64,000 nucleotides of DNA from Myxococcota bacterium (GTDB lineage: Bacteria > Myxococcota_A > Polyangia > Nannocystales > Nannocystaceae). Positions 7,179-59,117 of this stretch are shown here, in pieces. The notes beneath the pieces are model-generated. The model saw only the letters and a list, made by a program, of their open reading frames with translations, ran no database searches and had not been told where the DNA came from. The translations under genes and the position numbers were made by a program. Location of the stretch: positions 32,001 through 96,000 of the forward strand of contig JBCCHT010000025.1 of the NCBI GenBank assembly GCA_039028615.1. The letters run 5' to 3'. Position 1 is the first letter of the stretch. Each line of letters begins with the position of its first letter.

Positions 7179-8117
7179 TTGAATCTCGCCCCGCACGAAA
7201 GGCAAGAGGACGTGCCGACGACGAATCCCAGTCCCGAGGACCTGGACCCGCAGACCCTCGAGCGCGCACTCGAGGGTGACCCGCCCTCGGTGCAGGCCAC
7301 CTTGATCGCAATCGAAGAAGCGATCACCGACGCATGGAAGCACCCGTCGACGAACTCGGACTCGGCCCCGCCTGCGCCCGGACTCATCGACTCGGCCATG
7401 GCGTTCTCCCTCGCGAACGCGGAGAGCCTGTTCCGTCGCTGGAGCCCTCCCGAGGACGGTCGCTTTCATGACTACTGGGCATCGTTGGTCCGAGTCCACC
7501 TCGAGACGAGCACGCCTGCGCAAGACTCGTCGTTCGACTCCTGGACCTCGCGCCATGTCGAGTGGGCTCTCGACGGAGGTGGCTACCTCGGTCGGGTGCT
7601 CGGAGACTTGATCGTGCGGACGACGAGGAAGGTCGCGACCGGGATCTGTGGTCGCCGGCTCGGCCCTCACTTGTCCTTGTCGCGGGAAGACATCCACCAC
7701 GACACGATTCGCAAGATCTACGAGTTCCCCGGCGCCTCCGTCCGCGGGCTCAGCCGCGACCGCCGAGGGCACGCGCTCCGCCTGTGGGACCCGAGCCGCA
7801 ACCGCCTCCCAGCGTATATCGGCATCGTCGCTCGGCATCACATCTGGGCGATGCTGCGGCGCGACCGAATGCGCCCGGGGCAACCGATCTGTGAGACGAA
7901 GTGGCCCGAGCTCGCGACATCGAGCGGCTTCTATGGCCGGGCGATGAAGTGCCTCCATATCGAGCAGACGATGACCACCATGAGCGCTCGCGATCGGGCC
8001 ATCGTGCGAGAGAAGATCCTCGGCACGCCCTCCTGTCAGATCGCGAAGAAGCTCGAGATGAGCCGAGCGAACGTCGACGTCCGCTGGTACCGGTTCCGCA
8101 AGAACCTCGACCATTGA
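7179..8117 (+). CDS. atypical ECF-like sigma factor (apparent sigma2-sigma2-sigma4)
   Basis: C-terminal HTH (QIAKKLEMSRANVDVRWYRFRKNL); REDIHHDTIRKI...LRLWDPSRNRLPAYI sigma2; N-terminal region resembles a second sigma2. Confidence 0.75.
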   Translation: MNLAPHERQEDVPTTNPSPEDLDPQTLERALEGDPPSVQATLIAIEEAITDAWKHPSTNSDSAPPAPGLIDSAMAFSLANAESLFRRWSPPEDGRFHDYWASLVRVHLETSTPAQDSSFDSWTSRHVEWALDGGGYLGRVLGDLIVRTTRKVATGICGRRLGPHLSLSREDIHHDTIRKIYEFPGASVRGLSRDRRGHALRLWDPSRNRLPAYIGIVARHHIWAMLRRDRMRPGQPICETKWPELATSSGFYGRAMKCLHIEQTMTTMSARDRAIVREKILGTPSCQIAKKLEMSRANVDVRWYRFRKNLDH

Positions 8118-37638: not shown

Positions 37639-37914
37639 ATGAAACACCTACTCATTGAATCCGTATCGGTGGGCATCGCGATGATTGGCGTCTTGCTGCT
37701 GCATCCCATGACCGCGAGCTCAAATGTCGAGAATCATACGTCTTTGAGCGAATCCCGCGCCCAGCAGGAGTCCGCGCTCTATCTCGACAATGAGCCGCAA
37801 AGCGCGCATTTCGACCTCTCCTCGAAGCGCTGGTCTGTGACCGACGGCGAATCCACCGCATGGCTCGATGCCCGGACGGGCGAGCTGGTCGAGATCGAGT
37901 TCGGGGCGCCGTAA
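37639..37914 (+). CDS. small exported protein, PepSY-like C-terminus
   Basis: Hydrophobic N-terminus; W-x-V...LDARTGELV. Confidence 0.6.
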   Translation: MKHLLIESVSVGIAMIGVLLLHPMTASSNVENHTSLSESRAQQESALYLDNEPQSAHFDLSSKRWSVTDGESTAWLDARTGELVEIEFGAP

Positions 37915-38075
37915 CGCACTCTTCGACACCGACCGCTCCTTGGCGGCGCCCCGGACCTCAGCGTCCGGCGACGCGAGCCGACGAGGAGCCGGGGTCGGGA
38001 TCGCAACAACAACTCGGGGCGACGGCCAGTACGCAGCCCGGGCGGAAGCCCGGCGCGGGCTGGCATGCGGCCACG

Positions 38076-41366
<3,291 letters not shown>

Positions 41367-41460: not shown

Positions 41461-43308
41461 CTACCGCTGGGCCGGGGCCACGGCACGAGCAACCAGTGCG
41501 GTCTGGCTGACGGGCACCACCTCCCCAGTGCTTCGATCGGCGAGCTGGAGGGCGTAGGCCGAGTCCTCGCTGATGTCGGCGCAGGCGTCGCGAGCCGGAC
41601 TGCATTCGAAGAACAGGGCAAACGAGGCATCCCAGGCCGGCTCGATGAACCACGAGAGGATCCAGTCACGGGCGAGAGGGCCGTCGAGTCGTTGCGGACG
41701 ACCGGGTCGCGACGCGCCGATGTCCACCGCGTGAAGGCTTCGCTCGCCCGTCTTCGGGTGCACCGCGCTGTACATCATGGTCGCGGGATCGCGCGTGGGA
41801 AAGAAGGAGAACAGAAACGGTGGCGCGGCAGCCCCCACCCGCTGGGACAGGCCCGGCTCGGCCCCCGAGAGATTGGTGCGGGCCAGCTCGTGCTCTTGCT
41901 CGTAGTACAGCCACGTCGAGGTCGGGTCGAACCATGGCCGATCGTGGTTGACCGAAGGCAGGTCGGTGAGCGGCACGGAGGGCCCGAGACCGGAGCCCGT
42001 GTACTCGGCCAGGTGCAGGACATCGGCTCCGGTCGGCATCCGCACGAGGTACAGCAGCCACCGCCCGTCTGGGGACCAGTCGAAGTGCTGGTGGAGGACC
42101 TGGCCGGGCGGGTCGGTATGAACGAGGCTCGCGGGCGATGGCGAGCCCGTCGCCAGATCCACGAAGTAGAGGTCCCCGCCGACCGCAACGCCACTCCAGT
42201 ACACGAGCGCGCTGCCGTCGGGGGCGAACGCGGGGCCCACCAGCCAGGGCCGCTCCGGGGGCACCGTGTCGATGCGGATCGGGTCAGCGGGCGTCGGTCC
42301 GGACAGATCGACGAAGTACAGCGCGTCCGGCAGCTCGGGCGAAGACCAGGGCGTCTCGAGGTAGGTCAGGGCCTGCCCTCCCGGAGCGACACGGGGCTCC
42401 ACCGCACGCCGCTGTGGATCGAGCACGGCGCTGACCCTGGCGATCGAGGCCGGATCGGGAGCGGTGAGCGAGGCGAGATAGACCTCGCCGGGCCCCTGTG
42501 CGGGGTTGGTCGCGAACGCCAACGTCTGACCATCGGGGCTGGGGTGCATGTCGTACAGGTCAAAGGGCGCGTCTTCGTCGTGGGGCACCGTCAACTCGGG
42601 CGCCTCGAGGACCCCGTCCTGATAGATCAACGTGAAGAGAGCCGCGTTGTCCGGCGGTGCGCCCTCGGCATGGTCACGAGCCCAGACGAGAAAGGTCTGC
42701 GTCTGCGGGATGTACTGCTCGATGGACAGCTGCGACGCCGCGGGCAGAGGGTCGACCCCGAAGGGCTGCGAAGCACCGGGTGTATCCGTGGAGATGTTCA
42801 CGACGAAGCACGACGTGTTGGGGTCCTCGTCGTCGCGGGTGCAGTAGGCCACCCCGTGCCCGTCGTCGACGACCTCGATCGAGTGGGTGAAGGTCGTGGG
42901 CGGCAGCGCGGGCGTCAGGGTCTGGGGTGCCGACAGCTCGCCCTCGGCATAGGTGTACAGCAGCGGCTCTCCGAGCCCACGAAACGAGGCGGTGTCGAAC
43001 ACGACAAAGCGTCCTCCACTGGGCTGCGCCCCTTCGGTGGTCTCCTCACCCTCGGACGATTCCTCGACGCCCATGGTGGTGTCGAGCGACCCCGTGCTGC
43101 CGGTCGCACCGACCTGGCCCGTCATCGATTCGGTGCCCGTGCCGAAGACCGTCGTGGACTCCTCCGCCACGCCCGTGGACTCTTCTGGGTCGATCGGGAC
43201 GATGGGGTCGCTGCAGGCCGCCCACGCCAGCGGGCTCGTGAGCGCGAGGGCCTGGAGGGTTCGTCGAACGCAGCGCCGTGACACGCCGAGCAACACTGCA
43301 TGGGCCAT
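41461..43308 (-). CDS. TolB-like/PD40 beta-propeller lipoprotein
   Basis: WAAC lipobox; repeated SPDG/APGG/APDG...LY.VDL motifs. Confidence 0.85.
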   Translation of the reverse strand: MAHAVLLGVSRRCVRRTLQALALTSPLAWAACSDPIVPIDPEESTGVAEESTTVFGTGTESMTGQVGATGSTGSLDTTMGVEESSEGEETTEGAQPSGGRFVVFDTASFRGLGEPLLYTYAEGELSAPQTLTPALPPTTFTHSIEVVDDGHGVAYCTRDDEDPNTSCFVVNISTDTPGASQPFGVDPLPAASQLSIEQYIPQTQTFLVWARDHAEGAPPDNAALFTLIYQDGVLEAPELTVPHDEDAPFDLYDMHPSPDGQTLAFATNPAQGPGEVYLASLTAPDPASIARVSAVLDPQRRAVEPRVAPGGQALTYLETPWSSPELPDALYFVDLSGPTPADPIRIDTVPPERPWLVGPAFAPDGSALVYWSGVAVGGDLYFVDLATGSPSPASLVHTDPPGQVLHQHFDWSPDGRWLLYLVRMPTGADVLHLAEYTGSGLGPSVPLTDLPSVNHDRPWFDPTSTWLYYEQEHELARTNLSGAEPGLSQRVGAAAPPFLFSFFPTRDPATMMYSAVHPKTGERSLHAVDIGASRPGRPQRLDGPLARDWILSWFIEPAWDASFALFFECSPARDACADISEDSAYALQLADRSTGEVVPVSQTALVARAVAPAQR

Positions 43309-43431: not shown

Positions 43432-46245
43432 ATGCCGAGGCCGCAAGGCATACGCAGCGCCCGTCGGTGGCGAGCCCTCGTGATGGCCGCCCTCGTGAGC
43501 GCGTGCGGTGAGGCTCCAGAAGCGGAGGCCACTTCCCAGCCCATTGCCACCCGCGACGTAACGCCGAAACCTACGACCGCGGAACCGGTGACGATGGGGG
43601 CCGCCTTCTCCGGCTGCGAGCGGGTTCTCGTGGGCCCGGTGTGCCAGTTTCACCCCGGCAAGCTACCGCTGCGCGTATGGCTGGACCTCGACCCGCGGAT
43701 CCCCGCCTCGGTGCACATCGATGGCCGGCGGATCGACGCCCCCTCGATCCCCGTCGAGGGTGGTCAGCGCTTCGAGATCACGCCTCCCGACGACGCCCGG
43801 CACCTGGAGTTTCGCGCCACCCTCGACGAGGGACCGGGCGTGTTCCGGCTCCGGCTGGCACTGAGCACGCCGCAGAACCAGGTGCTGACCAACCTGTGGA
43901 TCCGCAGCAACGACCCCGCGAAACGGGCCGCGGTGCGCCGCGAACTCGAGACGCTGCCCGACACCCTGAATCCCGACGACCGCGCGGAGGCCCTGACGCT
44001 GCGCGCCGCCTTGGCCCGCGACGCCGAGCTCCAGAGCAACAGCTGGTACGACGAATACGACGACGCGATCGAGGCAGCGCTGAAGGTGGGGCGGCACAGC
44101 GACGCGGCCAACCTGGCGCATCAGGGGTCGTTCTTCGCCCTGCACTTCCGCAACGACGACCAGGCCAGCGAGGCGTGGCTTCGCCGGGCCGCGGAGTATG
44201 CCCGGGACGATCCCGAGCGCCGCATGGCTCAGGCGTACCACGAGGGGTTGCTCGAGCGAGCCCGCGGCAACACCCGGGCCGCCCTTCAGGCCTTCGAACG
44301 CAACGAGATCGAGACCCGCAAGCTGGGCTTGCCCGCCCGAGAAGCCAGCGTGTTGAGCGAGCAAGCCAACCTCGCCACCCGGCTGGGCGCCCACGACCGG
44401 GCGCGCGAGCTGGCGGCGAGAGCCCGGGAGCTCGAGGACGAGCTGGAGCCCGCCACTCGGGCCCAGCTGCGCAGCAACCTGGGGTGGATGATGCTCGAAG
44501 CACGCAGCCGGGGCGTCGCGACCGAAGATCCGCTGCCGCTGCTGACGGCCGCCTACGAAGAGCTCCACCCGGAGGATCCCCTGCGGCCCGACGTGCAGCT
44601 CAACCTGGGCTACGCCGCGATCTTGCGGGGCGATGCCGACGAGGGCCAACGGTGGCTCGACATGGTCGACGCGCCCTCGCTCGATCGCGTGGATGGTCTG
44701 TGGCTTCGTCTGTTCCGCGCCCGGGTCGCCCTGCTGCTCGGCAAGGCGGGCCGAGCCCAACGCGAGCTGCAAGCCCTGCTCGACGGGATTGAGCCCCACG
44801 ACGAGCTCGAGCTGCGCCTGCTGGCGCGAGTGGGCCTGGGGGAGACCCACGAGGCCCTCGGGCGAGCCGATCGGGCGCTGGCCGACTACCGAGCGGCCCA
44901 AGCCCTGCTCGACCGGCAGCTCCCGCGCATCGCCATCAACACGGGTCGCGGGCGCTTCGCGGCGGAGCGCAACGAGAGCACGCGTCGCATGGTCGATCTG
45001 CAGCTACGCCAGGGCGACACGGCGCAGGCGCTGTGCATCGCCCGACGCTCGCGAACTCGCGTGCTCCGAGTGCTCTCCCGGCAGCTCCGCCACCGCGCCG
45101 AGGCCTCGCCCGCCCACCTGAGCGCCCTGCAGCAGTATCGACGGCGCCGCAGCGAGCTCGAGTCCCGCTTCGACGAGAGCTTCACCATGGCCACGATCGC
45201 GGGTGAGCGCGAGCGCCGAGACCTGAAGGCCGCGCTCCTCGAAAACGAGCAGGCCCTCGATCGAGTCCTCGACGCGCTCGGGGCCACCGCTCCCGAGCCG
45301 GTCGCCTGCGAAGACCTACCCGCGCCCGGACCGGGACAGCTCGACCTGCACTACATGCGCCTGGACGACGGCTGGGTGGTCTTCGCTCACGACGACCGAG
45401 AACTCGCCGTGCACCGACTGGGGCCGCTGCCCCTCGACCGTGAGCCGGGGCCGATCGATTTCGATGCCGATCGCCTCGCCGCCTTGGGACAGACGCTGCT
45501 CGGTCCCCACGCGGAGGCCTTGGCCCGAGCGACGCAGGTCCGCGTCATGGCCACGGGCGCGCTGGGTCAGGTGCCCTTCCATGCGCTCCCCGTGGCGGGT
45601 GCGGGCTCGCCTCGGCTGCTCGAGCGCGTGGCGGTCGGGTACGGCCTCGACTTGCCGGGGCCACGGACCGCTGCGGCCGGGGGCTCGACGCTCGCCGTCG
45701 TCGTGGCGCCACCGAGCAACCTCGCCCATGCCCCGGCCGAAGTCGAAGCGATCGAGGCCTCGCTCGCCGCGTCGTTCAGCACGGTGCGGCGCCTGCAAGA
45801 TGGCCACGCCACCGGGCAGCAGGTCCGAGAAGTGCTGCCCCGCGCCACGCTGCTCCACTACGTCGGTCATGCCCGCGCCGAGGGCCTCGAAGGCTGGGAC
45901 AGCGCGCTGCAGCTGGCCCGCAACACCACGCTCGGCATCGGGGACATCCTCTCCACGGACCACGCCCTCCGCACGGTGGTGCTCAACGGCTGCGAGACGG
46001 GCACCGTCGATCCGCAGACCTTGGCGGGCGGCATGAGCCTGGCCCATGCCTTCGTGCTGTCGGGGGCGAGCACGGTCATCGCCACGACCCGGACCGTGGA
46101 CGACGCGGCCGCAGCGGAGCTGATGCGTGCCTTCCATGCCGAGCTGGCCACGGGCGCCACTGCGCTGCAGGCCCTTCGACAGGCCCAACGAGCCCGTCCG
46201 GCCACCGACGAGACCATGCTGCACGCACGCGCGTGGGTGCCCTGA
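43432..46245 (+). CDS. TPR-CHAT (caspase-like) protease, predicted lipoprotein
   Basis: VSAC lipobox; TPR helices; CHAT motifs VPFHAL, LHYVGHA (His), VVLNGCETG (Cys), AFVLSGA. Confidence 0.92.
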   Translation: MPRPQGIRSARRWRALVMAALVSACGEAPEAEATSQPIATRDVTPKPTTAEPVTMGAAFSGCERVLVGPVCQFHPGKLPLRVWLDLDPRIPASVHIDGRRIDAPSIPVEGGQRFEITPPDDARHLEFRATLDEGPGVFRLRLALSTPQNQVLTNLWIRSNDPAKRAAVRRELETLPDTLNPDDRAEALTLRAALARDAELQSNSWYDEYDDAIEAALKVGRHSDAANLAHQGSFFALHFRNDDQASEAWLRRAAEYARDDPERRMAQAYHEGLLERARGNTRAALQAFERNEIETRKLGLPAREASVLSEQANLATRLGAHDRARELAARARELEDELEPATRAQLRSNLGWMMLEARSRGVATEDPLPLLTAAYEELHPEDPLRPDVQLNLGYAAILRGDADEGQRWLDMVDAPSLDRVDGLWLRLFRARVALLLGKAGRAQRELQALLDGIEPHDELELRLLARVGLGETHEALGRADRALADYRAAQALLDRQLPRIAINTGRGRFAAERNESTRRMVDLQLRQGDTAQALCIARRSRTRVLRVLSRQLRHRAEASPAHLSALQQYRRRRSELESRFDESFTMATIAGERERRDLKAALLENEQALDRVLDALGATAPEPVACEDLPAPGPGQLDLHYMRLDDGWVVFAHDDRELAVHRLGPLPLDREPGPIDFDADRLAALGQTLLGPHAEALARATQVRVMATGALGQVPFHALPVAGAGSPRLLERVAVGYGLDLPGPRTAAAGGSTLAVVVAPPSNLAHAPAEVEAIEASLAASFSTVRRLQDGHATGQQVREVLPRATLLHYVGHARAEGLEGWDSALQLARNTTLGIGDILSTDHALRTVVLNGCETGTVDPQTLAGGMSLAHAFVLSGASTVIATTRTVDDAAAAELMRAFHAELATGATALQALRQAQRARPATDETMLHARAWVP

Positions 46246-46279
46246 ACGGGCTCACGCGCGCACGTGGTGTCGTCCGTCG

Positions 46280-47635
46280 TCAGCGAACCCAGACCAGCGC
46301 GTCGCCGTCTCCGACCGCCTCGAACTCGACCGTATCGCCCGGCTCCAGCCCCACGACCAACTCGTGCCGTTGGTGCCCCTGCAGGGAGTCCAAGGCCCCT
46401 ACGCGAACGCCATTGACGAGGATCTGGACCCCTCGAACCGAGACCGCCCCGCCGACGTGCTTGACGGTCATCGAGCTGCGCCCGTCGGTCCGCACGGGCA
46501 CCCGTACCCGGGCGGGACACAGGTACTCCCGACCTCGACCGTCGCTGCGCTCGAGGCTCCAGCGATCGCCCGGCTCCTCGCCGAACGAGTAGTTCTGCAC
46601 GATCTTCGGGCCCGCGACCGGACGACTCGACAAGGTCCGCAGCTCGGACCGAATGGCCGCCAGCGCCTCCAGCACCGTGCTCCACAGCCCCTCGCCGCTC
46701 GCCTCCGCGTCGTCGACCCACCCGAACATGTGGCGGCGCTCGCCGAAGTGGAAGTCGTTGACGTAGGGCGGCACCTCGAACTCTCCGCCGGGCAGCGGCT
46801 TGCGGTCGCGAGTCCACCACGCCCGCGTGATCCAGCCGCCCGGCGACAAGATCAAGTGCACGTCGTTGCAGCCCATGGGCGCCTCGTCGGGATCGCGCTC
46901 GCTGTCGGGCATGGGCTTGCCGTCGCGGGTCCAGTACACGCGCCACACTCGGAACGAGTCACCGTCGCGCTCGAAGTCGATGCCGATGTCGTTGGCGCCC
47001 TCGGGGGCCTTGCGACGCCGCATCTCCTTGCCGTCCTTGGTGTAGACCACCTCCGCACCAGCCGCCACGAACTCGAGGTGGAGGTCGTTGGCCTCGATCG
47101 GGGGTCGCTCGGCCGGGCCATAGCGTTGGCCGTCCCGCGTCCACACCAGCTGAATGTCCTCGGGCGGCTCTTGCTTCGGCCGCCACGGGAAATTCTCGAG
47201 GAGCCCGAAGTGCACGTCGTTGGGCTTCAGCGTCTCGAAGGGAAACTTGATGTCGCCGATCGGCGTGCCGTCGCGAGTCCACCACGCCGCCGTGATGTGA
47301 CCGCCGCCCCGCGGGAGGATCAGGTGACCGTCGTCCGCGCCCTCGGGCGCGGGCTGGGCCCCTCCCTTCATGCGCTCACCGTCGCGAGTCCAGTACATCC
47401 GCCGGATCGACGGCGCCCCTGCCGAGTACAGCTCGAAGTCGAACCCGACGTCGTTGGCTCCCTCGGGCGCGGGGATGGGCTTGCCGATCGGTTTGCCGCC
47501 ACGGGTGAACTGGGCGAAAGCCCCTCCCTGGCCGCCATTGAAGCGCAGATGCAGATCGTTGGCACCTTCGGGGATCCAGTCGATCGGCCTCCCGATGGGC
47601 ATGCCGTTGCGGGTAAATCGAAGTCTGGGGGTCAT
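46280..47635 (-). CDS. orphan protein with eight [WFY]T[RK]xG...ND repeats
   Basis: AAGGA RBS; strong GC3 bias; 2x4 internal repeats. Confidence 0.85.
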   Translation of the reverse strand: MTPRLRFTRNGMPIGRPIDWIPEGANDLHLRFNGGQGGAFAQFTRGGKPIGKPIPAPEGANDVGFDFELYSAGAPSIRRMYWTRDGERMKGGAQPAPEGADDGHLILPRGGGHITAAWWTRDGTPIGDIKFPFETLKPNDVHFGLLENFPWRPKQEPPEDIQLVWTRDGQRYGPAERPPIEANDLHLEFVAAGAEVVYTKDGKEMRRRKAPEGANDIGIDFERDGDSFRVWRVYWTRDGKPMPDSERDPDEAPMGCNDVHLILSPGGWITRAWWTRDRKPLPGGEFEVPPYVNDFHFGERRHMFGWVDDAEASGEGLWSTVLEALAAIRSELRTLSSRPVAGPKIVQNYSFGEEPGDRWSLERSDGRGREYLCPARVRVPVRTDGRSSMTVKHVGGAVSVRGVQILVNGVRVGALDSLQGHQRHELVVGLEPGDTVEFEAVGDGDALVWVR

Positions 47636-47727
47636 TGCGGGCGTCCTTTTTTGTCGATGACGTGACCCATCGCCCTCGGCCGCCCACACCCGGGCGACCG
47701 AGCCCACGGGTCCGGTTGTGCGGGCCA

Positions 47728-47755
47728 TGGACGGCCACGAGCCCCCGCGTGACGG
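47728..47755 (-). promoter_or_regulatory. putative ECF promoter CCGTCAC-N15-CGTCCA (repeat-protein gene)
   Basis: Exact match to copies at 47871 and 51676. Confidence 0.8.
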
Positions 47756-47870
47756 ATCGATTTCGACCCCACCGAGGCCCACGTCGGCCCCGCCCTGCCG
47801 CCGAGGACCGACCACGGATCGAGGCCGTGGCGACCCGAAAACGGCGCTCCGCAATTTTGTTGCCGCGAAG

Positions 47871-47898
47871 CCGTCACATTCGATGACGATCGCGTCCA
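47871..47898 (+). promoter_or_regulatory. putative ECF promoter CCGTCAC-N15-CGTCCA (subtilase-sigma-anti-sigma operon)
   Basis: Ends 10 nt before ATG 47909. Confidence 0.8.
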
Positions 47899-47908
47899 GG
47901 ACTCTCCG

Positions 47909-50098
47909 ATGGACCTTCGTCTCCCGTGCGTCTTTGGCTTGGTCGGCTCGCTCGCCTTGGTGGGCTGCCTCAACTCCAATCCTTCACAAACGTCCGCGAC
48001 CGGCCCCGGCGACGACAAGGGCGACGAAGGCACCATCATCGTTCCGCCCCCGCCCCCGCCTCCGCCTCCACCTCCGCCCCCGCCGCCCGTGGTCGAACCC
48101 GCGTGCCCCGGGAATCCGAATCCGACGCGGTACATCGCGATCATGGAGGACCCCGCCGCCTGCGTCGGCACGGAGGAGTGGAGCGCCGCGCCGCTGTTCC
48201 GAGCGCCGGGAACCGGGCTCGCCGTCGGTGCGCCCGGCCCGGTCGAGGTCGAGGCCAAAGCGGCGGCCGAGGCTCAGGTCCCGGCCGAGGTCGAAGAACT
48301 GGAGGCACCGCCCTCGCCCTGGCCGGAGCCCCTGCGGAGCTTCTGCGAGTACGAGTGGCGAGGCGAGACCGAAGTCCCCGGGCCTCCCGAGGTCGATGCC
48401 ATCGAGATCGATCCCGACTGCAATCGCTTGCTGCCCCAAGCCCCCGCGCGCAACACCATCGAAGACGACCGCAAGGAGCTGCGCCGACGGCAGGCGGTCC
48501 GCACCGAACTGGAGCTCGGGTTCCCCGATCGTCGCGGCCCCTCCCCGGTCGTCGCGAACGGACCCTACGTCGCCATCGTCGATACGGCCGACACCACCGC
48601 CCCGGGTGCCCCGACGCCTCCCTATTGGTCCGCCGACCCGAACCGAGCGTCCCAGCGACATGGCCTGATGATGCAGGGCCTGGTCGATGCGGTGCGCTGC
48701 TCCGAAAGCCCCGGCGACACCTGCCGCAACCGACGGTTCACGGTGCAGGCGTTCACTCGCGGCACCATCCCCGGTCAGCTCGGCAGCCTCGGCTCGCTGG
48801 CGCAAGCGCTGAGCGTAGCGATGGTGCAGTGGCAGGCCCAGCCCGACGCCGCCAATTCCGGTCTGGTGATCAACATGAGCCTCGGCTGGGATCTGCTGCC
48901 GTCGGAGGCCCTGGACGACAACCACATGAACCTGCTGCAGAACGGGCCCGACCCGGTCCCCGTGCCCGCCCGCGCGGTGCATGCCGCGTTGGCCTGGGCC
49001 GCCTGCCGTGGTGCGCTGAGCTTTGCGTCGTCGGGCAACGATCGGGGCATTGCGTGCGAGCAGACCGGGGCGATGGGCCCCGCCGCCTGGGAACAATGGG
49101 CCGCCCCCACGGCGGCCGCCTGCACGCCGCACTTCGGGGCGCCCCCCGCCAGCGTCACCGCGGGCAACGGTGCTCGCCTCGTGGCCGCGGTCGGCGGAGT
49201 GGAGATGAACGATCAACCGCTCGCGATCACCCGCCGCGGCAGCCTGCCCACACGAGTCATGTACGCCCACGAGGCGGTCATTGCCGTCGAGGGCGGTGCG
49301 TTCTCCGAGCCCTGGACGGGGACCTCGGTGCCCACCGCCGTGGCCTCCGCCCTCGCGAGCGCCCTGCCCAACCGCGGTCCCACGCCGACCCCCGCCGAGC
49401 GCCTGCAACGCATCGACGCCAGCGGAACGGCGATCGGCAAGCAGGCCGAGCTGTACCCCGGAACCCAGAGCTCCCCGGCCAAGCGCATCGACGTCCGCCA
49501 GGCCTCGGCCTTGGTCCGCCGCTTGGTGCAGCCGCCGAGCGCCCGGCCCCCGAAGGTCGACGAGGCCTTCGCCGCGCTGGTCTCCGGGCACTTCCCCGCC
49601 CCGGCCACGATGCTCGGCGTCAACCGACCGCGGTCGGGAGGCCCCGTCTGCGAAAACGCCGACGTGGACGCCTTCGGCACCAGCCCCGCCCGGCGGCAGC
49701 CCCAAGTCACGGACCTGGCCGCCGCCACCCGGCCGCAGCCCCACGTGCCGATCTGCCCCGACTGCACCATCTTCCGCCCCACGGGCACCACGCAGTACCA
49801 AATGACGGTCGACCTCGAGCCCGAGTACGAGCAGACCCGGATCGATCGAACGACGCTCAGCTTCTTCGACGAGAGCACCAACACCTTCCTGGTCGTGGAG
49901 CTCGATGACACCATCGACCCCGACGCGCTCCAGGTCCTCTCGCTCAATCGCCCGCAGCTGCCGGGCGGGGGCTCGCTCGCCGACTGGCTCGAAAATCGCC
50001 CTGCCGTCGTCAAGGGACGCGTCTCGTTCTCGGTCGACGACGGGAGCGGCAACCCGCCACAGATGGTCAACGAAGAGATCATCATCTCGCGACGATGA
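47909..50098 (+). CDS. S8 subtilase-like serine peptidase, lipoprotein
   Basis: LVGC lipobox; VAIVDT (Asp), RHG (His), VINMSLGW, SSGND, GTSVPTAVAS (Ser). Confidence 0.85.
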   Translation: MDLRLPCVFGLVGSLALVGCLNSNPSQTSATGPGDDKGDEGTIIVPPPPPPPPPPPPPPPVVEPACPGNPNPTRYIAIMEDPAACVGTEEWSAAPLFRAPGTGLAVGAPGPVEVEAKAAAEAQVPAEVEELEAPPSPWPEPLRSFCEYEWRGETEVPGPPEVDAIEIDPDCNRLLPQAPARNTIEDDRKELRRRQAVRTELELGFPDRRGPSPVVANGPYVAIVDTADTTAPGAPTPPYWSADPNRASQRHGLMMQGLVDAVRCSESPGDTCRNRRFTVQAFTRGTIPGQLGSLGSLAQALSVAMVQWQAQPDAANSGLVINMSLGWDLLPSEALDDNHMNLLQNGPDPVPVPARAVHAALAWAACRGALSFASSGNDRGIACEQTGAMGPAAWEQWAAPTAAACTPHFGAPPASVTAGNGARLVAAVGGVEMNDQPLAITRRGSLPTRVMYAHEAVIAVEGGAFSEPWTGTSVPTAVASALASALPNRGPTPTPAERLQRIDASGTAIGKQAELYPGTQSSPAKRIDVRQASALVRRLVQPPSARPPKVDEAFAALVSGHFPAPATMLGVNRPRSGGPVCENADVDAFGTSPARRQPQVTDLAAATRPQPHVPICPDCTIFRPTGTTQYQMTVDLEPEYEQTRIDRTTLSFFDESTNTFLVVELDDTIDPDALQVLSLNRPQLPGGGSLADWLENRPAVVKGRVSFSVDDGSGNPPQMVNEEIIISRR
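48044..48088 (+). repeat. poly-proline tract (15 codons)
   Basis: CCN x15 within the subtilase N-terminus. Confidence 0.9.
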
Positions 50099-50745
50099 AC
50101 CTCGGGGCGACGGCTCTCGGACAGGAGGTCGTGATATGGTGCCGTCGCCCGAGCATGACGCCCGAGGAGATCGACAGTGCGTGTCGCGGCGATGGCGACG
50201 CCCTGACCTCCCTGGTCGAGGTTCTGCTACCGGTGATCAAGGTCGAGGTCGTGGTGGCCCTCCAGCAACGATCGGGAGCCCGCGGGCGTGACGTCCGGCA
50301 AGACGTCGACGACTTCGTGCAGGACGTGATGCTGCATCTGCTCGACAACGACGGTCGCGTCCTCCAAGACTGGGACCCCGCGCGCGGGCGCTCGCTGCCG
50401 AGCTTCGTGCGCATGGTGACCCGCCACCGCGTCGCCCGGGTCCTCGAAGGATTCCGCGGCAATCCCTGGAGCACCGATCCGGTCGAGCACGAGGACCTCG
50501 AGCAGCTCCGCGCGGACACCAGCGGCACCTTTCGCCGCCTCGCCTCCCGCGACGAGCTCGCCCATGTGCTCGAGGCCCTGTGGGCACGGCTCGACGCCCG
50601 CGGCCGCGAGCTGTTCCAGCTGCTCTTCGTCGAGCAGCGCCCCACCGCCGAGGTCTGCGAGCGCATGCAGATGACCCCCGCCGCCGTTCGGCAGTGGACG
50701 GCTCGAATGCGCCGAAACCTGCGCAAGCTGGAGGAGGCGGCATGA
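50095..50745 (+). CDS. ECF RNA polymerase sigma factor
   Basis: DVDDFVQDVMLHL...WDPARG.SLPSFV sigma2; EVCERMQMTPAAVRQWTARMR sigma4; start may be 50155. Confidence 0.88.
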   Translation: MNLGATALGQEVVIWCRRPSMTPEEIDSACRGDGDALTSLVEVLLPVIKVEVVVALQQRSGARGRDVRQDVDDFVQDVMLHLLDNDGRVLQDWDPARGRSLPSFVRMVTRHRVARVLEGFRGNPWSTDPVEHEDLEQLRADTSGTFRRLASRDELAHVLEALWARLDARGRELFQLLFVEQRPTAEVCERMQMTPAAVRQWTARMRRNLRKLEEAA

Positions 50746-51578
50746 CCGGCCCCGAGATCGACGAGCCGATGCTGGACGCGCTGGGCAAGCTCGAGCGCGA
50801 GCGCGCCGCGTCGATCCCCGCGGGGCTCGAGGACTACGTCGCGGGTCGACGCTCGGCCGAGGACGTGCTCGCCGAGGCGCCCCCCGAGGACCGAGAGCGG
50901 GTCCAAGCCATGCTCGACGCCCTCGGCCCCGCGGATCCCGAAGCGCCCCGGGCCTGGGCCACGCGGCTGACCGCTCAGCTCGAAGCTCGAGCCGCCGATC
51001 GAGCGGAGCCCGAAGCCGAACCCCCCATCGACCTGGCCGAACGCCGTCGCTCGCGGGTCGTGGTGTGGACGGTGGCGGCCACTGCCGTGGCCGCGGCCGC
51101 TGTGGCCGTGCTGACCCTGATGCCCCGGGGTCAGCCCGCACCCGAACCCGACGGAGATCCCCCTGCGGTCGGCACCTCCTTGCCCTCGTTCACGCTGACC
51201 GTGCGCGACTCTTCCGTGCAGACGATCCGCGGCGAGCCCGACCTGAGCAAACCCGCCCGCTACCTGCCGACCTCGCAGATCCACTGGGTGCTCAGCCCGC
51301 TACGCCCCCAGGACGGGCCGCTCGGCGTGCGCGTGCTGGCGCAGGACGACCAGGGCGCTCGACGCTTGCTCACCCCGGCCGAGCCGCGCCGACTCGACAA
51401 CGGGGCGATCGAGATCGAGGGTCGCTTGGCCCAGCAGCTCGAGCTTCCCGCCGGCCACTGGACGCTGCGGTTCGTCGTGGGTGAGCAAGCCTCGCTGCCG
51501 AGCGATCCGGCCGCCGTCGATCGGGGTGGCCCGTGGGTCGTCGCCGAGCCGGCCTACGTGGTGCACGTGACCGACTGA
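50742..51578 (+). CDS. putative membrane anti-sigma factor
   Basis: GGAGG RBS, ATGA overlap with sigma; ~100 aa cytoplasmic part, single TM, beta-rich C-terminal domain. Confidence 0.78.
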   Translation: MTGPEIDEPMLDALGKLERERAASIPAGLEDYVAGRRSAEDVLAEAPPEDRERVQAMLDALGPADPEAPRAWATRLTAQLEARAADRAEPEAEPPIDLAERRRSRVVVWTVAATAVAAAAVAVLTLMPRGQPAPEPDGDPPAVGTSLPSFTLTVRDSSVQTIRGEPDLSKPARYLPTSQIHWVLSPLRPQDGPLGVRVLAQDDQGARRLLTPAEPRRLDNGAIEIEGRLAQQLELPAGHWTLRFVVGEQASLPSDPAAVDRGGPWVVAEPAYVVHVTD

Positions 51579-51675
51579 TCGGCACCGCCCACGCGGCGCC
51601 ACGAAGGAGCGATCCAGCCCGGCTCTTCGCAGGTCGGTGGGTCGCTCGTTTTTTTCACCCTCCGCGGTCACGACC

Positions 51676-51703
51676 CCGTCACGCCAGGGCCTGTCGCCGT
51701 CCA
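51676..51703 (+). promoter_or_regulatory. putative ECF promoter CCGTCAC-N15-CGTCCA
   Basis: Third exact copy, upstream of 51829. Confidence 0.8.
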
Positions 51704-51828
51704 TGGAGGCGTAACCCCCCGGGCTCGCCGCTGGACTCCCCACCGCGGCGGGCCTCCGCCCGGGCGTGCGCCGCCGTACGACGGCGCACGCTCTGTCCCC
51801 CCCAAAAAAAAACAAAGAGAGACCGACA

Positions 51829-52980
51829 ATGGCGAAAGGCCGCACCTGGTGCATCGACTTTCAAACCGCCGCGACCAAGGCGGGCGACGTGAGCGTGAAG
51901 TATCGCGTCAAGCTCCCCAACGGCATGATCCAAGAGCTCAACGGTAGCTGGCAGGGCTACCCGATCGGCATGACCCCCGACGCGAAGGCGACCCGTTTTT
52001 TCAGGCGCCTGTCCACCGATCCCAACATGAGCTCGCTGGTCAACGTGTCCCGGGCCGGCAATACCGTCTGCTTTCAGCTCAAGGACGGCGCCCCCTACGA
52101 CGACATCGAGGGCATCGAGGTCGGCGACGAGACGGGACAGATCATCCACACCTACGACGATCCGCCGCCCGCCGACACCTCGCCGCTCGGGCCCCTCGAC
52201 ACGGTGCGGCTCGTGCTGTCCCCCAACGGGCGTCGCTCCGCCGAGGGCGGCAACGTGTGGCTGGGCATCGGCGTCACCGCCCCGCTCGTCTGCGTGCCCA
52301 CCCGACCCGAGGGCGGACGGCTCGACGTGGCCGCCGTGATCGAAGCGATCGTCAGAGCGTTCAACGAGGCGTACGCGGAGCTCGGCTACGAAGCCGCCCC
52401 CGGCAACGACGGCGAGGTCATCATCCCCGAGGTCCCCTGCAAGCTCGGCGTCCGCGGAGGGACCGACGACCCCGACCTGAGCTCCTCGCTCGGGCTGGTC
52501 AACCCGGCGGCGGGCGGCTTCGAACGGCCCTTCTCCAAGGCCGACGCGCTTCGGGCCGCCTTGGAGGTCATCGACGCCCGACTGCGCCGCACCTTCCCTC
52601 ATACCGCGGCCGGGGCCGGCATGGTGACCGGAGAGATCGCCCTGCAGGTGGTCGGCGGGACCGTGGCCGCGTGCCCCAACCCTTACGACGACGTCATCGC
52701 GGAACTCGAGGGCATCAAGGGCACCCTCGAGCGCCTGAAGAAGGGGCGCACCGACGCCCAGAAGAAGGCGCTCGAAGAGGCCCGCACCAAGATCCAAGAG
52801 GCGATCGACGGCCTCGAGAAGATGCGCGACTCCGACCCCAACGCGCCGAGCGAGGGTGACATCCAAAAGGCCCTCCGCGACGCGGCCGACAAGATCGACG
52901 AGGCCAACCCCAACCGCCGCAACGGCTCGCTGCGTCGCCAGGCCGACGCCCTGAGGGACATCGAGCGCAACCTGTTCTGA
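51829..52980 (+). CDS. hypothetical protein (beta-rich N-terminus, coiled-coil C-terminus)
   Basis: A-rich leader with GAGAG; strong GC3 bias; no signal peptide. Confidence 0.85.
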   Translation: MAKGRTWCIDFQTAATKAGDVSVKYRVKLPNGMIQELNGSWQGYPIGMTPDAKATRFFRRLSTDPNMSSLVNVSRAGNTVCFQLKDGAPYDDIEGIEVGDETGQIIHTYDDPPPADTSPLGPLDTVRLVLSPNGRRSAEGGNVWLGIGVTAPLVCVPTRPEGGRLDVAAVIEAIVRAFNEAYAELGYEAAPGNDGEVIIPEVPCKLGVRGGTDDPDLSSSLGLVNPAAGGFERPFSKADALRAALEVIDARLRRTFPHTAAGAGMVTGEIALQVVGGTVAACPNPYDDVIAELEGIKGTLERLKKGRTDAQKKALEEARTKIQEAIDGLEKMRDSDPNAPSEGDIQKALRDAADKIDEANPNRRNGSLRRQADALRDIERNLF

Positions 52981-53198: not shown

Positions 53199-54005
53199 AT
53201 GAACGATCATCATCCGCGGCTTCATCGAGCCGCAGGACTCGCCCTCGTGCTCGGCGGGTCGGCGCTCGCCGTCCTCGCGGGCGCATGCGACGTAGACCCG
53301 GCCGCGCGCACGGGCGGCCTCGTCGCCGAGGACCAGACGCGCATGCACGTCTCGGAGCTCCCCGACGGGGCGAGCGGCGATTCCTGCGTCGCGCGCTGCG
53401 GAACCTGGACCACGGGCGCCACGTGCCAGTGCGACGACGAGTGTGGCGAGTACGGAGACTGTTGCGACGACCTCGAGGTCCTGTGCACCGAGGACGATGG
53501 CGGCGTGGCCAAGGACCCCCTGGCCGAGTACTGCTACGACGTCGTCGACGAGCTATGGGACGGCATCGCGGACGAAGAGGCGATGCTCGAGGCGATCAAC
53601 GAGCGTCGCCAGCACGAGCAGGACTGCGGCACCGAAGGGGTATTTGCCCCCGCACCACCGCTGAGCCTCGATCCCTCCGCTCAGTGCGCCGCCCGCAATC
53701 ACAGCATGAACATGGCGAAGTTCGATTTCTTCGCCCACAACGATCCCGAGGGTCGACGCGTGAAGGACCGGCTCGATCTCGCGGGCGAGAGCTTCATGAG
53801 CGTGTGGGGCGAGAACATCCACGGTGGCTCCCCCACGGCCGAGGAGGCCGTCGATTCATTGATCAAGAGCGATGGCCACTGCGCCAACATCATGAGCCCC
53901 GACTTCACTCGCGTGGGCGTTGGCCATCACCCCGGTCCTACCGTCCACCCCGTCACTGCCGAGCCGCTGCATCACCTTTGGACTCAGGTGTTCTGGAGCC
54001 CCTAG
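53199..54005 (+). CDS. CAP (SCP) domain lipoprotein with somatomedin-B-like module
   Basis: LAGAC lipobox; SCVARC...CQCDDECGEYGDCCDD...C; INERR, AARNHS, FFAH, GENI, SDGHCANIM, WTQVF. Confidence 0.9.
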   Translation: MNDHHPRLHRAAGLALVLGGSALAVLAGACDVDPAARTGGLVAEDQTRMHVSELPDGASGDSCVARCGTWTTGATCQCDDECGEYGDCCDDLEVLCTEDDGGVAKDPLAEYCYDVVDELWDGIADEEAMLEAINERRQHEQDCGTEGVFAPAPPLSLDPSAQCAARNHSMNMAKFDFFAHNDPEGRRVKDRLDLAGESFMSVWGENIHGGSPTAEEAVDSLIKSDGHCANIMSPDFTRVGVGHHPGPTVHPVTAEPLHHLWTQVFWSP

Positions 54006-55206: not shown

Positions 55207-56226
55207 ATGGTCGTCGACATCGGCACCGGTCGCATCGTGGCCGCAGCCTTCCTCGCGCTCGGGCTCTCCGGTTGCGCCGAGGAGGTCGACATCCCCATCG
55301 ACGCCAAGATCCAGGCGCCTCGGTTCTATCCCGGGGAACACGCCCCCACGATCGGCTTCGACATCATCGCCTCCACCCCCGAGCTGCAGGCCCAGGTCTG
55401 CTCGGGCGCCCTGCAGGTCTGGGTCGAGGTCTTCAATCCCGCCACCGCCGAGTGGGATCACGTGCTGCACACGGGCGTGTCGATCTCGTGCAGCAGCGAG
55501 CCAGCCAACGTCTCGCTCGTGGCCGACAACAGCGGCTCCCAGGAAGAGGTCCTCGAGCTCACCCAGGAGTCCGTCATGCAGTTCGTCGACGACATCATCG
55601 ACGGCGGCGGCAAGATGGGCCTCACCCGGGTCAGCACCGGGTCCGAAGTGCTGACCCCGCTGACCCACGAGTACGACGTGCTCACCGACGCGGTCGACAA
55701 CCTCTTCGTCAACGACGGGTGGACCGCGCTCTACGACGGCATCCGCATGGCCAACGGCAGCCTCCAGCAGTACGTCGCCGACTCGATCGACGAGGACGAC
55801 CTGTGCATGGACGGCGGCCGGCGTTCCATCGTGGTGTTCACCAACGGCCGCGAGAACAACTCGGCCGACGAGATGAACGCCAACTACTCCGACGGCATCG
55901 ACACCACCTACGAGGACGTCTTGAACCTCACCGTGGGCGACGTCACGACGCCTATGTACATCGTGGGGCTCGGCGACAACACGGATCCCGTTTTCCTCCA
56001 GGAGCTCGCCGACGAGACCAACGGCCACTACCTCGCCGTCGATGCGGCCGACGATCTGCCCGAGGCATTCGGGCTCGTGTCCGGCTACGCCACCGAAGGG
56101 GCGAGGATCTGCGCCGAGCTGACGGAAGTCTGCGGTCCGACCCAGGTGCGGATGAGCTACACCCTCGACGGCTGGGCCACCTACGTCGGGCCCAAGTACT
56201 TCGCGGTCGACGTCCCCTGCGCCTGA
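55207..56226 (+). CDS. VWA domain lipoprotein
   Basis: LSGC lipobox; DNSGS MIDAS, TALYDG, VVFTNG, LQELADETNG. Confidence 0.9.
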   Translation: MVVDIGTGRIVAAAFLALGLSGCAEEVDIPIDAKIQAPRFYPGEHAPTIGFDIIASTPELQAQVCSGALQVWVEVFNPATAEWDHVLHTGVSISCSSEPANVSLVADNSGSQEEVLELTQESVMQFVDDIIDGGGKMGLTRVSTGSEVLTPLTHEYDVLTDAVDNLFVNDGWTALYDGIRMANGSLQQYVADSIDEDDLCMDGGRRSIVVFTNGRENNSADEMNANYSDGIDTTYEDVLNLTVGDVTTPMYIVGLGDNTDPVFLQELADETNGHYLAVDAADDLPEAFGLVSGYATEGARICAELTEVCGPTQVRMSYTLDGWATYVGPKYFAVDVPCA

Positions 56227-57202: not shown

Positions 57203-58804
57203 TCACGACACCCGGGGTCGGCGACTCAGCCCATGCCACGCGCTGCCCATGAGCCAGATCCCCAGGCCCCCCGCCGTCGCCCACCACAGCCACAGCCAGT
57301 CCGGGAACACAACCGTCAGCGCGGCGGACACCACGAAGGTCACCGCCGGAATGAGCATGCGGGGCAGCAGCACCGCCATCGCGCCCAGGAACAGCGCGAA
57401 GGTCAGCAGGGCCAGGCTGACCGTGGCCCGCAGGGGGAGCTGGAGGTACCAGCCCAGCGACGGGAAGGCGACCATCGCCGTCGACAACGCCAACATCATG
57501 CCGTTTTGGGTTCGGCTGACCAGGCTCATCGGTCGTCGACGCTGACTCCGGGCGCGTCGATGGATCGCGGTGATGATGTAGCCGAGGACGCAGGACGAAG
57601 ACACCACGCACAGGGTGAGCAAGAACGGATAGGCGACGTCGAGGTCGGCCGGCAGGACGTACTCTTGAGCGTAGATCGCCGCCCCGAGGTTGATCAGGCC
57701 GACGATGAACGACGCGACCACCCGGGAGCGCACGCCCACCCGCAGGTCGACGTGACGCCGAAGATCGACGATCTCCTGGTCGGCCATCGATCCCAGCAAT
57801 CGCCGCAACTTCCTCAGCAACACCTCCATCGATGGCCAGCGCCGATGGGGCTCGGAGGACAAGCCGCGCAGCAGCACCCGCCGTAGCTCGCGGGGCACCA
57901 GGCTTTCGGGCGGCGGAGGCTTGATGGTGTCGCTCGTCATCGCCTCCATCAGCTCGGGAATCGAGCCGCCGGGGAAGGGCCGCTCGCCGTAGACCGCCTC
58001 GTACAGCGAGACGCAGAAGCTGAACTGATCGCTGAGCACCGACGCGTCGTGCCCGGCCATCTGCTCCGGCGGCATATAGGCCGGCGTCCCGAGGATGGCC
58101 CCCGTCTGGGTGAGCGACACATCGAGCGGCACCGATCGCTGCGCCGCCGAGCGCACGCGCACCACGACGCTGGGCACGCTCTCGTCCGCGTCCGCCCCGT
58201 CGCGTCGCGCCAGGCCGAAGTCCAAGACCCGCACTCGGCCGTCGTTGTCGACGACCACGTTGCCGGGCTTGAAGTCGCGGTGCACCAAGCCTTTGGTATG
58301 CGCCGCCGCCAAGCCTCGCCCCGCTTGCAGGTACAGCTCGAGGCACTCGGTCCAGTCGGGGCAGGTGCCGCTGTCGTTCTGCCACTGGCGCAGGGTCTGG
58401 CCCTTCACCAGCTCCATGACCAGGAAGATCTTCTCGTCGACCTCTCCGACCTCGAAGACCTGCACCACGTTGGGGTGAGAGAGCTTGGCCATGGCCTGCG
58501 CCTCCCGCTTCAGGCGTGGCCCGTGGTTGCCGACCGGGTCCGTGTGCAGGACCTTGATCGCCACCTGTCGGTCGAGGACGTCGTCGTAGGCCTTGAGCAC
58601 CACGCCCATGGCTCCCTCGCCCAGCTCGTCGAGCACGATGTAGCGACCGAAGCGGCGCACCGTCGGCTGGGCGAAGAGCGCCCCGAGCACCTTGGCGCGA
58701 CGAGCCTCCTGCACGGCCGTGATCTCGCGGGGCTGATTGGGCACCATCCGCATGGGGTGGATGTCCACTTCGATCGTGCTCTGCTCTAGATCGACATCTT
58801 CCAC
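57203..58804 (-). CDS. Ser/Thr protein kinase with polytopic C-terminal membrane domain
   Basis: GEGAMG, HRDFKPGN, DFG, PPEQ, SDQFSFCV; about six C-terminal TMs, no TPR. Confidence 0.93.
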   Translation of the reverse strand: MEDVDLEQSTIEVDIHPMRMVPNQPREITAVQEARRAKVLGALFAQPTVRRFGRYIVLDELGEGAMGVVLKAYDDVLDRQVAIKVLHTDPVGNHGPRLKREAQAMAKLSHPNVVQVFEVGEVDEKIFLVMELVKGQTLRQWQNDSGTCPDWTECLELYLQAGRGLAAAHTKGLVHRDFKPGNVVVDNDGRVRVLDFGLARRDGADADESVPSVVVRVRSAAQRSVPLDVSLTQTGAILGTPAYMPPEQMAGHDASVLSDQFSFCVSLYEAVYGERPFPGGSIPELMEAMTSDTIKPPPPESLVPRELRRVLLRGLSSEPHRRWPSMEVLLRKLRRLLGSMADQEIVDLRRHVDLRVGVRSRVVASFIVGLINLGAAIYAQEYVLPADLDVAYPFLLTLCVVSSSCVLGYIITAIHRRARSQRRRPMSLVSRTQNGMMLALSTAMVAFPSLGWYLQLPLRATVSLALLTFALFLGAMAVLLPRMLIPAVTFVVSAALTVVFPDWLWLWWATAGGLGIWLMGSAWHGLSRRPRVS

Positions 58805-59117
58805 GGCCAAAAATCCCCCTAGACCATCAGTGTAACGGCGACACCGATTGACTGAGCGATTTCACGACTTTTCGCCAATTGGGCACCTGGTCCTTTTGGG
58901 CAATTCGATCGCCATGGCACTTCACCGCGAACCGAATGCTCGATTGGGTAACAAAGAGGGAGTCAAAGCTCCGCGGTGACGCACTCACCCTTGGGCACCC
59001 GAGGATGCCCGGGACTGACGAATGCACAACCAGACCACGCTGCAAGCCTCCATCGTCTCCGTTCACTCGGGAAGCCCGCCTGCACCGTGGCGCACCGCTC
59101 CCCGTATACTCGTCGCC

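Follow-up and report, generated by a model that had tools for sequence, protein, structure and literature searches.

A window of 64,000 nucleotides from a marine myxobacterium (contig JBCCHT010000025.1 of assembly GCA_039028615.1; genome 12.3 Mb, GC 68%), by which we mean the whole stretch of DNA analysed, carries a cassette of four linked genes: a sigma factor of the extracytoplasmic function (ECF) type, a single-pass membrane protein that is its candidate anti-sigma factor, a lipoprotein joining tetratricopeptide repeats (TPR) to a caspase-like CHAT domain, and a divergent subtilase (S8) lipoprotein. The cassette is real and conserved, and we consider it reasonably probable that it is a regulated-proteolysis switch, in which CHAT would act as the site-1 protease that cuts the anti-sigma at Arg163. 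Computational tools establish the genes, their catalytic residues, their linkage, a promoter class, a natural fusion, a covariation of residues and, as modelled in a related pair, docking. An initial annotation of this DNA had proposed a CRISPR-independent, envelope-located CHAT protein acting on the anti-sigma, with the subtilase and two orphan genes (orfA and orfB) as targets; linkage, fusion, complex model and covariation support this proposal, while cleavage itself is what we infer. Its companion claim, that no characterised system has this layout, does not hold: DdvA/DdvS, a fused counterpart (PMC11506125), and the ECF54 group (PMC7826278) anticipate such a system in the literature.

A conserved cassette of sigma factor, anti-sigma, CHAT and subtilase

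All six open reading frames (ORFs) of the initial annotation were confirmed in position (third-codon-position GC, GC3, 0.86-0.91). The CHAT protein matches Pfam CHAT (E 1e-30) and has, as reported, an intact His813/Cys854 dyad; the dyad is nearly invariant in relatives (His in 57/58, Cys in 58/58, and 52/52 in a further set). The second protease, too, is as described, with an intact Asp225/His251/Ser473 triad and membership of S8 by profile: Asp, His, the oxyanion Asn and Ser are each kept, in order, in 43/43 homologs, 36 of the 38 alignment members match PF00082 (E up to 0.01), and the profile retrieves subtilisins in the Protein Data Bank (PDB; best E 1e-11). The window's S8 protein itself has no Pfam match, and neither it nor the window's CHAT domain gave anything useful as a single sequence against the PDB. 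Both proteins were called lipoproteins because a Cys that follows a hydrophobic stretch is conserved (CHAT, lipobox-like Cys25, 50/58; S8, Cys20, 42/43), and for CHAT this sequence predicts an extracytoplasmic location. The sigma factor scores above the TIGR02937 cut-off. The anti-sigma candidate has one hydrophobic segment, residues 106-124, and no Cys or His N-terminal to it; it matched no family in Pfam or the PDB.

Of 73 genomes from the order, its own among them, 57 contain a match to the sigma factor. From 129 sigma matches outside the own genome we took 60 loci, favouring high scores and long contigs; the anti-sigma was present in 58, CHAT in 51, S8 in 40 and all four in 39, CHAT occurring without S8 in 12 and S8 without CHAT in one. 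The linkage that the initial annotation had suggested looking for across Myxococcota is conserved, with a gene order that varies widely. Another 80, shorter loci yielded the trio of sigma, anti-sigma and CHAT in 49 cases and the full set of four in 29. The anti-sigma domain was recovered, in some cases weakly, from 50 of 401 genomes sampled across the phylum, and 20 loci picked by it from other families contained the sigma factor (20/20), CHAT (15/20) and S8 (12/20). Among the regions examined, the own genome has 11 cassettes, five with S8 and six without, and it has 25 CHAT matches in total. These linkage counts make sigma, anti-sigma and CHAT the core, and S8 its usual fourth gene. The closest named relative, Paraliomyxa miuraensis (Myxococcota; sigma 67% identical), has a locus with all four genes, the arginine discussed below and a promoter, and without orfA and orfB.

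Two side observations concern individual cassettes. At three loci (L038, L041 and L089) the CHAT or S8 frames are fragmented, through decay or assembly errors. In the own genome, tandem RebB-like (R-body) genes (L219:7295-9959; contig C1 near 371800-375200) follow a paralogous sigma/anti-sigma/CHAT cassette about 2 kb downstream; PF11747 matches strongly in two of the three scanned and weakly in the third.

Fusion and docking of CHAT and the anti-sigma

In a genome of another family, one protein of 955 residues (L121:8730-11597) joins a whole anti-sigma homolog to TPR-CHAT, with profile matches to the anti-sigma (HH 95.6%, E 1e-8) and to TPR-CHAT (100%, E 2e-47); as a single sequence it had no match in the PDB. 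The fusion gene overlaps the sigma stop and is followed by S8 (L121, 8152-14001). Judged by its sequence, it is the DdvA architecture made from parts of the window's own anti-sigma/CHAT family.

Modelling CHAT with the anti-sigma, a check proposed at the outset, gave a score of 0.69 for a related pair (L042), against 0.00 for the best of three controls; 116/157 solved and 2/215 mismatched pairs reached that mark. At least 95% of the contacts coincide between runs, with a predicted local distance difference test (pLDDT) of at least 84 for the partner, and the interface includes the equivalents of CHAT His813, Cys854 and Asp891 and of anti-sigma residues 155-165 with Arg163. A comparison of the anti-sigma periplasmic domain with the CHAT N-domain returned no homology (probability 0.6%).

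An anti-sigma arginine covaries with candidate CHAT pocket acids

Arg163 is present in 57 of 63 anti-sigma homologs, lies a median of 32 residues beyond the membrane and is followed by G, S or A in 53/58. Among 840 CHAT columns, Glu770 and Asp891 rank first and second in tracking it. In 69 pairs, 44 of which had suggested the Arg/Glu770 idea (five gap rows left out), both residues were present in 63 and neither in six, with no discordant pair; Glu770 alone, out of 27 columns with high conservation, is lost in all six non-Arg pairs. Held-out pairs, a set that left out 14 anti-sigma hits without a scorable CHAT, were concordant in 48/52, and two Lys variants among them keep Asp891 and have lost Glu770.

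MALT1 and gingipain R are described as holding a P1 Arg by acids on helix 1 and loop 5 (PMC4357240). Glu770 comes before the dyad and Asp891 after it, which fits the helix 1 and loop 5 places by sequence order only, and in the same order-based sense the window's CHAT protein may have its candidate S1 acids at positions like those of the Arg-specific clan CD proteases MALT1, gingipain R and separase. In DdvA (PDB 8ROT, chain B), residue 943 is an Asp at the column equivalent to Asp891, a hint that DdvA may likewise cut its linker, after a basic residue.

Over all pairs combined, both acids are kept in 100/104 Arg pairs and 0/16 non-Arg pairs, by a rule that is the best of four definitions tried; on the combined tree (FastTree; one gap row left out) this comes to only four independent changes (sign test p 0.125). 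Asp891 alone is weaker, with 2.2 changes the same way, 0.2 opposite and 1.6 without difference. The non-Arg clades are divergent and harder to align, and four of the 52 held-out pairs disagree. We count these limits on the covariation among the points against cleavage at Arg163, together with those set out in the next section.

A proposed switch and its alternatives

On the mechanism that we favour, CHAT, sigma and anti-sigma would be made at a basal level from putative basal promoters, and the anti-sigma would hold the sigma factor at the inner membrane through a presumed interaction. The exported TPR-CHAT lipoprotein would dock on the anti-sigma periplasmic domain, and an envelope signal, presumably read by its TPR or N-domain, would lead to a cut after Arg163; an RseP-type protease would then cut within the membrane, and the freed sigma factor would transcribe the subtilase, orfA and orfB from GTCAC-N15-CGTCC promoters. 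Each paralogous cassette of the genome would have its own promoter variant and its own cargo. The genome has five M50 protease matches, and DdvA without its periplasmic domain is reported to be cut by RseP (PMC11506125).

Several further observations weigh on the other side. The docked pair is a stand-in, 35% and 39% identical to the window proteins; its 25 surest contacts fall on another CHAT segment (525-532), the contacts listed include no Arg-Cys pair and the interface list does not name the Glu770 equivalent, so that the placement of Arg163 at P1 is something we infer. Because Arg163 follows strand one of the periplasmic domain, a cut there might leave the anti-sigma pieces associated. 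The L121 fusion lacks the Arg and both acids, and may therefore cut at another residue. DdvA dyad mutants are reported to behave like the wild type, with no trigger found (PMC11506125). Nine of the 60 sigma-picked loci have no CHAT nearby, some of them at contig ends. An Arg in the S1 pocket, finally, suits an inhibitor as well, the gingipain prodomain being an example.

This last point leads to an alternative that we hold to be unlikely, in which CHAT and the anti-sigma would form a stable complex whose Arg loop plugs the active site, as securin or a prodomain does; a signal would break the complex or turn CHAT on another target, and the sigma factor would be freed by loss of a steric block to RseP, with no productive cut at Arg163. 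High-confidence docking with a large interface outside the active site fits such a plug, as do the gingipain prodomain, which puts Arg126 into S1 (PMC4357240), and DdvA, whose bulky domain is said itself to block RseP and whose dyad mutants are without effect (PMC11506125). The small residue that follows the Arg and the invariant dyad, however, fit a substrate, and where the Arg changes the pocket changes while the dyad stays, as expected of a specificity switch.

The subtilase could instead be the site-1 protease, or be activated by CHAT and then cut the anti-sigma, in a cascade like that from SAVED-CHAT to PCaspase. Its triad is invariant, and two-protease cascades do exist in myxobacteria (bioRxiv 2023.06.23.546230); we nevertheless think either version quite unlikely, as S8 is missing near 12/51 CHAT-bearing loci and from 6/11 own-genome cassettes, and covariation and fusion tie the anti-sigma to CHAT. 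Since it sits behind an ECF promoter, S8 looks like an output.

The loci without CHAT, and the 14 anti-sigma hits without a scorable one, would be expected if the cassette were a co-inherited regulon, with the sigma factor released by a general envelope protease or another route and CHAT processing exported cargo. Fusion, docking and covariation all argue for direct contact between CHAT and the anti-sigma, the lack of the promoter motif upstream of CHAT (see below) also speaks against CHAT being an output here, and we rate this alternative, too, as improbable. Cleavage of the anti-sigma by CHAT remains the reading that we carry forward.

Promoters and the start of the sigma gene

The subtilase, orfA and orfB share an exact promoter-like motif, as the initial annotation had noticed: CCGTCAC-N15-CGTCCA has three exact copies in the window against 0.25 expected (at least three in 0/100 shuffles) and five in the 12.3 Mb genome, three of them at the cassette; with any of six other spacer lengths the genome count is 0-2. 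Upstream of CHAT, again as reported, and upstream of the sigma and CAP genes, a slightly shortened form is missing even when two mismatches are allowed; it has one two-mismatch match upstream of the divergent PD40 gene. With the motif absent upstream of it, CHAT is not an output here. A scan for the sigma-70 consensus gave no promoters, and a search for a distal regulon with CGTCAC-N15-CGTCCA gave 10 sites genome-wide, of which the seven off-locus sites had no convincing target.

In relatives the exact motif is not enriched upstream of S8 or CHAT over other spacers; they have the -35 core and its position in common with the window, and the -10 is variable. The place that CGTCACA-N14-CGTCCA takes in the window, measured from the S8 start, is taken in close relatives by CGTCAGA-N14-TGTAGA, and in other clades GTCAT(C/T) is combined with ACAAT-like -10 elements. 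Over 34 loci we counted 22 extra copies of the promoter variants where spacer controls gave 7.2 (leaving out the window, 17 and 4.8), with patterns chosen by eye, which tells against the excess; these copies precede sigma, anti-sigma or neighbouring exported genes.

Both ATGA overlaps that had been described, between S8 and sigma and between sigma and anti-sigma, are present in the DNA; the first is probably not at a real start. The codon at 50155 aligns with a start codon in 10/10 loci of this layout, and a TGnTAnnnT extended -10-like box lies ahead of the aligned start in 9/10. The sigma gene probably starts at 50155 and has its own housekeeping-type promoter, in which case the S8/sigma overlap looks incidental, and the sigma factor would switch itself on, as had been claimed, only through read-through from the S8 promoter across 56 bases.

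In region 4 of the sigma factor, Arg199 and Pro195 differ from the closest paralog, and position 199 tracks the fifth base of the -35 element: Asp or Tyr goes with G (21/21), Asn-Ala with T (10/10), Asn-Thr with G in two, and the window's unique Arg with C. The pairing is a lead for how paralogs may be insulated and, because the pattern follows clades, no proof of it.

Promoter variants also turn up in other places. At L065, L075, L061 and L064 one lies inside the 3' end of the sigma gene and would drive only the anti-sigma, probably as a negative-feedback design. The variant of the C29 cassette recurs as an exact copy 10 nt before a lipoprotein gene that lies far away from it (own genome, L220:564-1661, contig C10 near 92028) and is a likely distal target. 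At L074:15685-17010 a trypsin-like lipoprotein, a third protease as cargo, lies behind its cassette's variant.

The cargo genes orfA and orfB

The initial annotation had called orfA and orfB cytoplasmic effectors. Neither product has a hydrophobic N-terminus or signal peptide, in agreement with the first half of that description. Both genes were found in 0/72 related genomes, and in the closest relatives CHAT and S8 adjoin without orfA between them; from sequence they are lineage-specific, promoter-linked cargo, with a putative effector role.

OrfA consists of two copies (1-145 and 161-297) of an unnamed domain of about 140 residues with WTRDG and ND(L/V)H repeats. A profile of the domain takes in 86 proteins found by searches, 29 of them with a hydrophobic N-terminus, and 41 relatives scanned against Pfam gave no match to it. 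The domain has three internal FT.DG/NDVH repeats, occurs singly, in duplicate or joined to PDZ or further domains, and is present in exported and cytoplasmic proteins. The orfA model is poor (pLDDT 38.9; best fold match Z 5.7) and shows neither a new nor a known fold. In the ESM Atlas orfA had no usable match, and orfB only viral leads below 0.9.

OrfB has five relatives in a large protein search, sharing about 250 N-terminal residues and variable at their C-termini, and none in a scan of the genome collection. The model of its first domain (4-111) matches a cyanophage tail sheath domain (Z 11.0, root-mean-square deviation 2.2 over 90 residues), the Mu sheath (Z 10.1) and T7-type nozzle proteins (9.4 and 8.7); flagellin also matches, so the fold is not phage-specific. 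The C-terminal part here is a four-helix bundle that matches generic four-helix bundles only. Some orfB relatives contain a segment with a weak match to the orfA domain (19 bits, against 10.4 for the best of 900 shuffles).

Three metagenome loci have an orfB relative, and one is long enough to judge (L093, GC 54%). There (L093:2291-11416) the orfB homolog lies downstream of a TPR-CHAT gene with a signal-like N-terminus, a sigma-like gene, a transmembrane (TM) partner and a secreted DUF4394 protein; this is a single case, and its sigma-like and partner genes do not match the profiles of the window's family. Read by eye, its CHAT keeps both acids and its partner has Arg-Ala. A GAAAC...TTTCG(T/A)CATTAA motif, likewise read by eye, stands before the partner and DUF4394 genes.

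Features and neighbours of the locus

Positions of the cassette genes, promoter elements and key codons in the window
Feature	Position	Strand	Description
TPR-CHAT lipoprotein	43432..46245	+	937 aa; signal with Cys25, beta-rich N-domain, TPR, CHAT; dyad His813/Cys854
CHAT Glu770 codon	45739..45741	+	Candidate S1 acid; column best tracking anti-sigma Arg163
CHAT Asp891 codon	46102..46104	+	Candidate S1 acid; tracking rank 2
orfA	46280..47635	-	451 aa; between CHAT and S8
ECF-type promoter motif	47728..47755	-	Precedes orfA
ECF-type promoter motif	47871..47898	+	Precedes S8; ends 10 nt upstream of its start
Divergent subtilase (S8) lipoprotein	47909..50098	+	729 aa; Cys20, Asp225/His251/Asn377/Ser473
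Extended -10-like box TGnTAnnnT	50131..50140	+	Probable housekeeping promoter of sigma and anti-sigma, predicted
ECF sigma factor	50155..50745	+	Probable start; frame open from 50095
Single-pass anti-sigma candidate	50742..51578	+	278 aa; zinc-free cytoplasmic domain, TM 106-124, periplasmic beta-rich domain
Anti-sigma Arg163-Gly164 codons	51228..51233	+	Predicted CHAT cut (or grip) site
ECF-type promoter motif	51676..51703	+	Precedes orfB
orfB	51829..52980	+	383 aa

The neighbours of the cassette (41464-43308 on the minus strand, 53199-54005, 55207-56226, 37860-41366, and 57203-58810 on the minus strand) belong by Pfam to a PD40/TolB-like exported protein divergent from CHAT, an SMB-CAP lipoprotein, a VWA protein and two Ser/Thr kinases; they look like ordinary myxobacterial genes, and the exact motif precedes none of them. 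Rfam gave no matches over 36000-60000. A weak sigma match at 7758-8108 (E 4e-4) is probably a second ECF sigma factor in the same window.

Comparison with known systems

The closest known system is DdvA/DdvS of Myxococcus xanthus, which is structurally solved (PDB 8ROT and 8RW5) and for which the authors propose, as a hypothesis, that CHAT acts as site-1 protease ahead of RseP (PMC11506125). The two systems have in common an ECF sigma factor, a single-pass anti-sigma and a periplasmic TPR-CHAT with a His/Cys dyad (PMC11506125), and DdvA, with Asp943 in the place of Asp891, is the best PDB match of the window's CHAT-domain profile (E 3e-8). In DdvA, however, anti-sigma, TM segment and TPR-CHAT form one polypeptide, whereas the window has separate genes with CHAT as a separate lipoprotein, and its relative L121 is fused. 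The cytoplasmic domain of DdvA binds zinc through CHCC, whereas CxxC or HxxxCxxC occurs in 0/64 of the window family; the window's anti-sigma has a periplasmic domain of its own, and a subtilase accompanies the cassette. DdvS is described as using GTAA-n16-CGT (PMC6061681), in contrast to GTCAC-n15-CGTCC in the window, and DdvA/DdvS controls a CRISPR/CBASS island, of which none was seen at the window (PADLOC matched 0/8 local proteins, and no Cas1 was found in the genome, 96.7% complete).

ECF54 comprises ECF genes near a subtilase and TPR-CHAT, for which proteolytic control was proposed from gene context (PMC7826278; PMC8999054), and the window has both in its neighbourhood. In these sources ECF54 is described as 100% Actinobacteria and as having no anti-sigma, with a carboxypeptidase-regulatory-like protein at +1; the window's host, in contrast, is myxobacterial, its +1 gene encodes a single-TM protein without a Pfam family, and its proteases are exported. 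The promoter given there as predicted for ECF54, GTATCAG/CTCC, is similar and not identical to the family's -35 (CGTCAGA) and the window's -10 (CGTCC). The cassette thus works like DdvA/DdvS yet lacks several defining features of DdvA/DdvS and of ECF54; it is a split relative of DdvA.

DdvA is also a closer analogue than Csx29/Csx30, which the initial annotation had put forward. In type III-E Craspase, TPR-CHAT Csx29 cleaves the anti-sigma Csx30, relieving the ECF-like CASP-sigma, and the substrate stays docked on the CHAT domain (PMC10028731); that system is described as cytoplasmic, RNA-triggered, dependent on Cas7-11 and not Arg-specific (PMC10028731). The Csx29 model scores 16.7 bits on the window's CHAT against a cut-off of 300, and PADLOC gave no local match and no Cas1 was found in the genome, Cas7-11 itself not having been searched genome-wide. 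Like RseA/DegS/RseP-type systems, which cleave a single-pass anti-sigma in two steps (PMC11506125), the cassette would work through a site-1 protease, but here that role would fall to a cysteine protease of clan CD that each cassette encodes for the purpose.

Implications

We found no paper on the split, lipoprotein form of CHAT, and no report of a periplasmic caspase-like protease shown cutting an anti-sigma, in the literature searched, most subscription journals being outside its reach. A far-reaching and rather unlikely extension of the switch is that the cassettes are envelope caspase-like receptors, each CHAT sensing its own external threat, cutting only its own anti-sigma at a pocket-matched residue and firing an insulated sigma factor with a promoter code to itself, so that the genome would run 11 channels; orfB, with its phage-tail-like domain, would be a decoy or sensor of phage assembly, and the whole a CRISPR-free antiphage pathway triggered outside the cytoplasm.

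The split form places enzyme and substrate on separate soluble domains, which makes the hypothesis raised for DdvA directly testable; it supplies a predicted cut site (Arg163), two candidate pocket residues, a reporter promoter and a described species, Paraliomyxa miuraensis, and the natural non-Arg variants, the C13 cassette of this genome among them, are a built-in specificity swap. If the proposed switch is true, bacterial transmembrane signalling would gain a dedicated site-1 protease from clan CD, and a large part of the genome's 25 CHAT matches would acquire a function.

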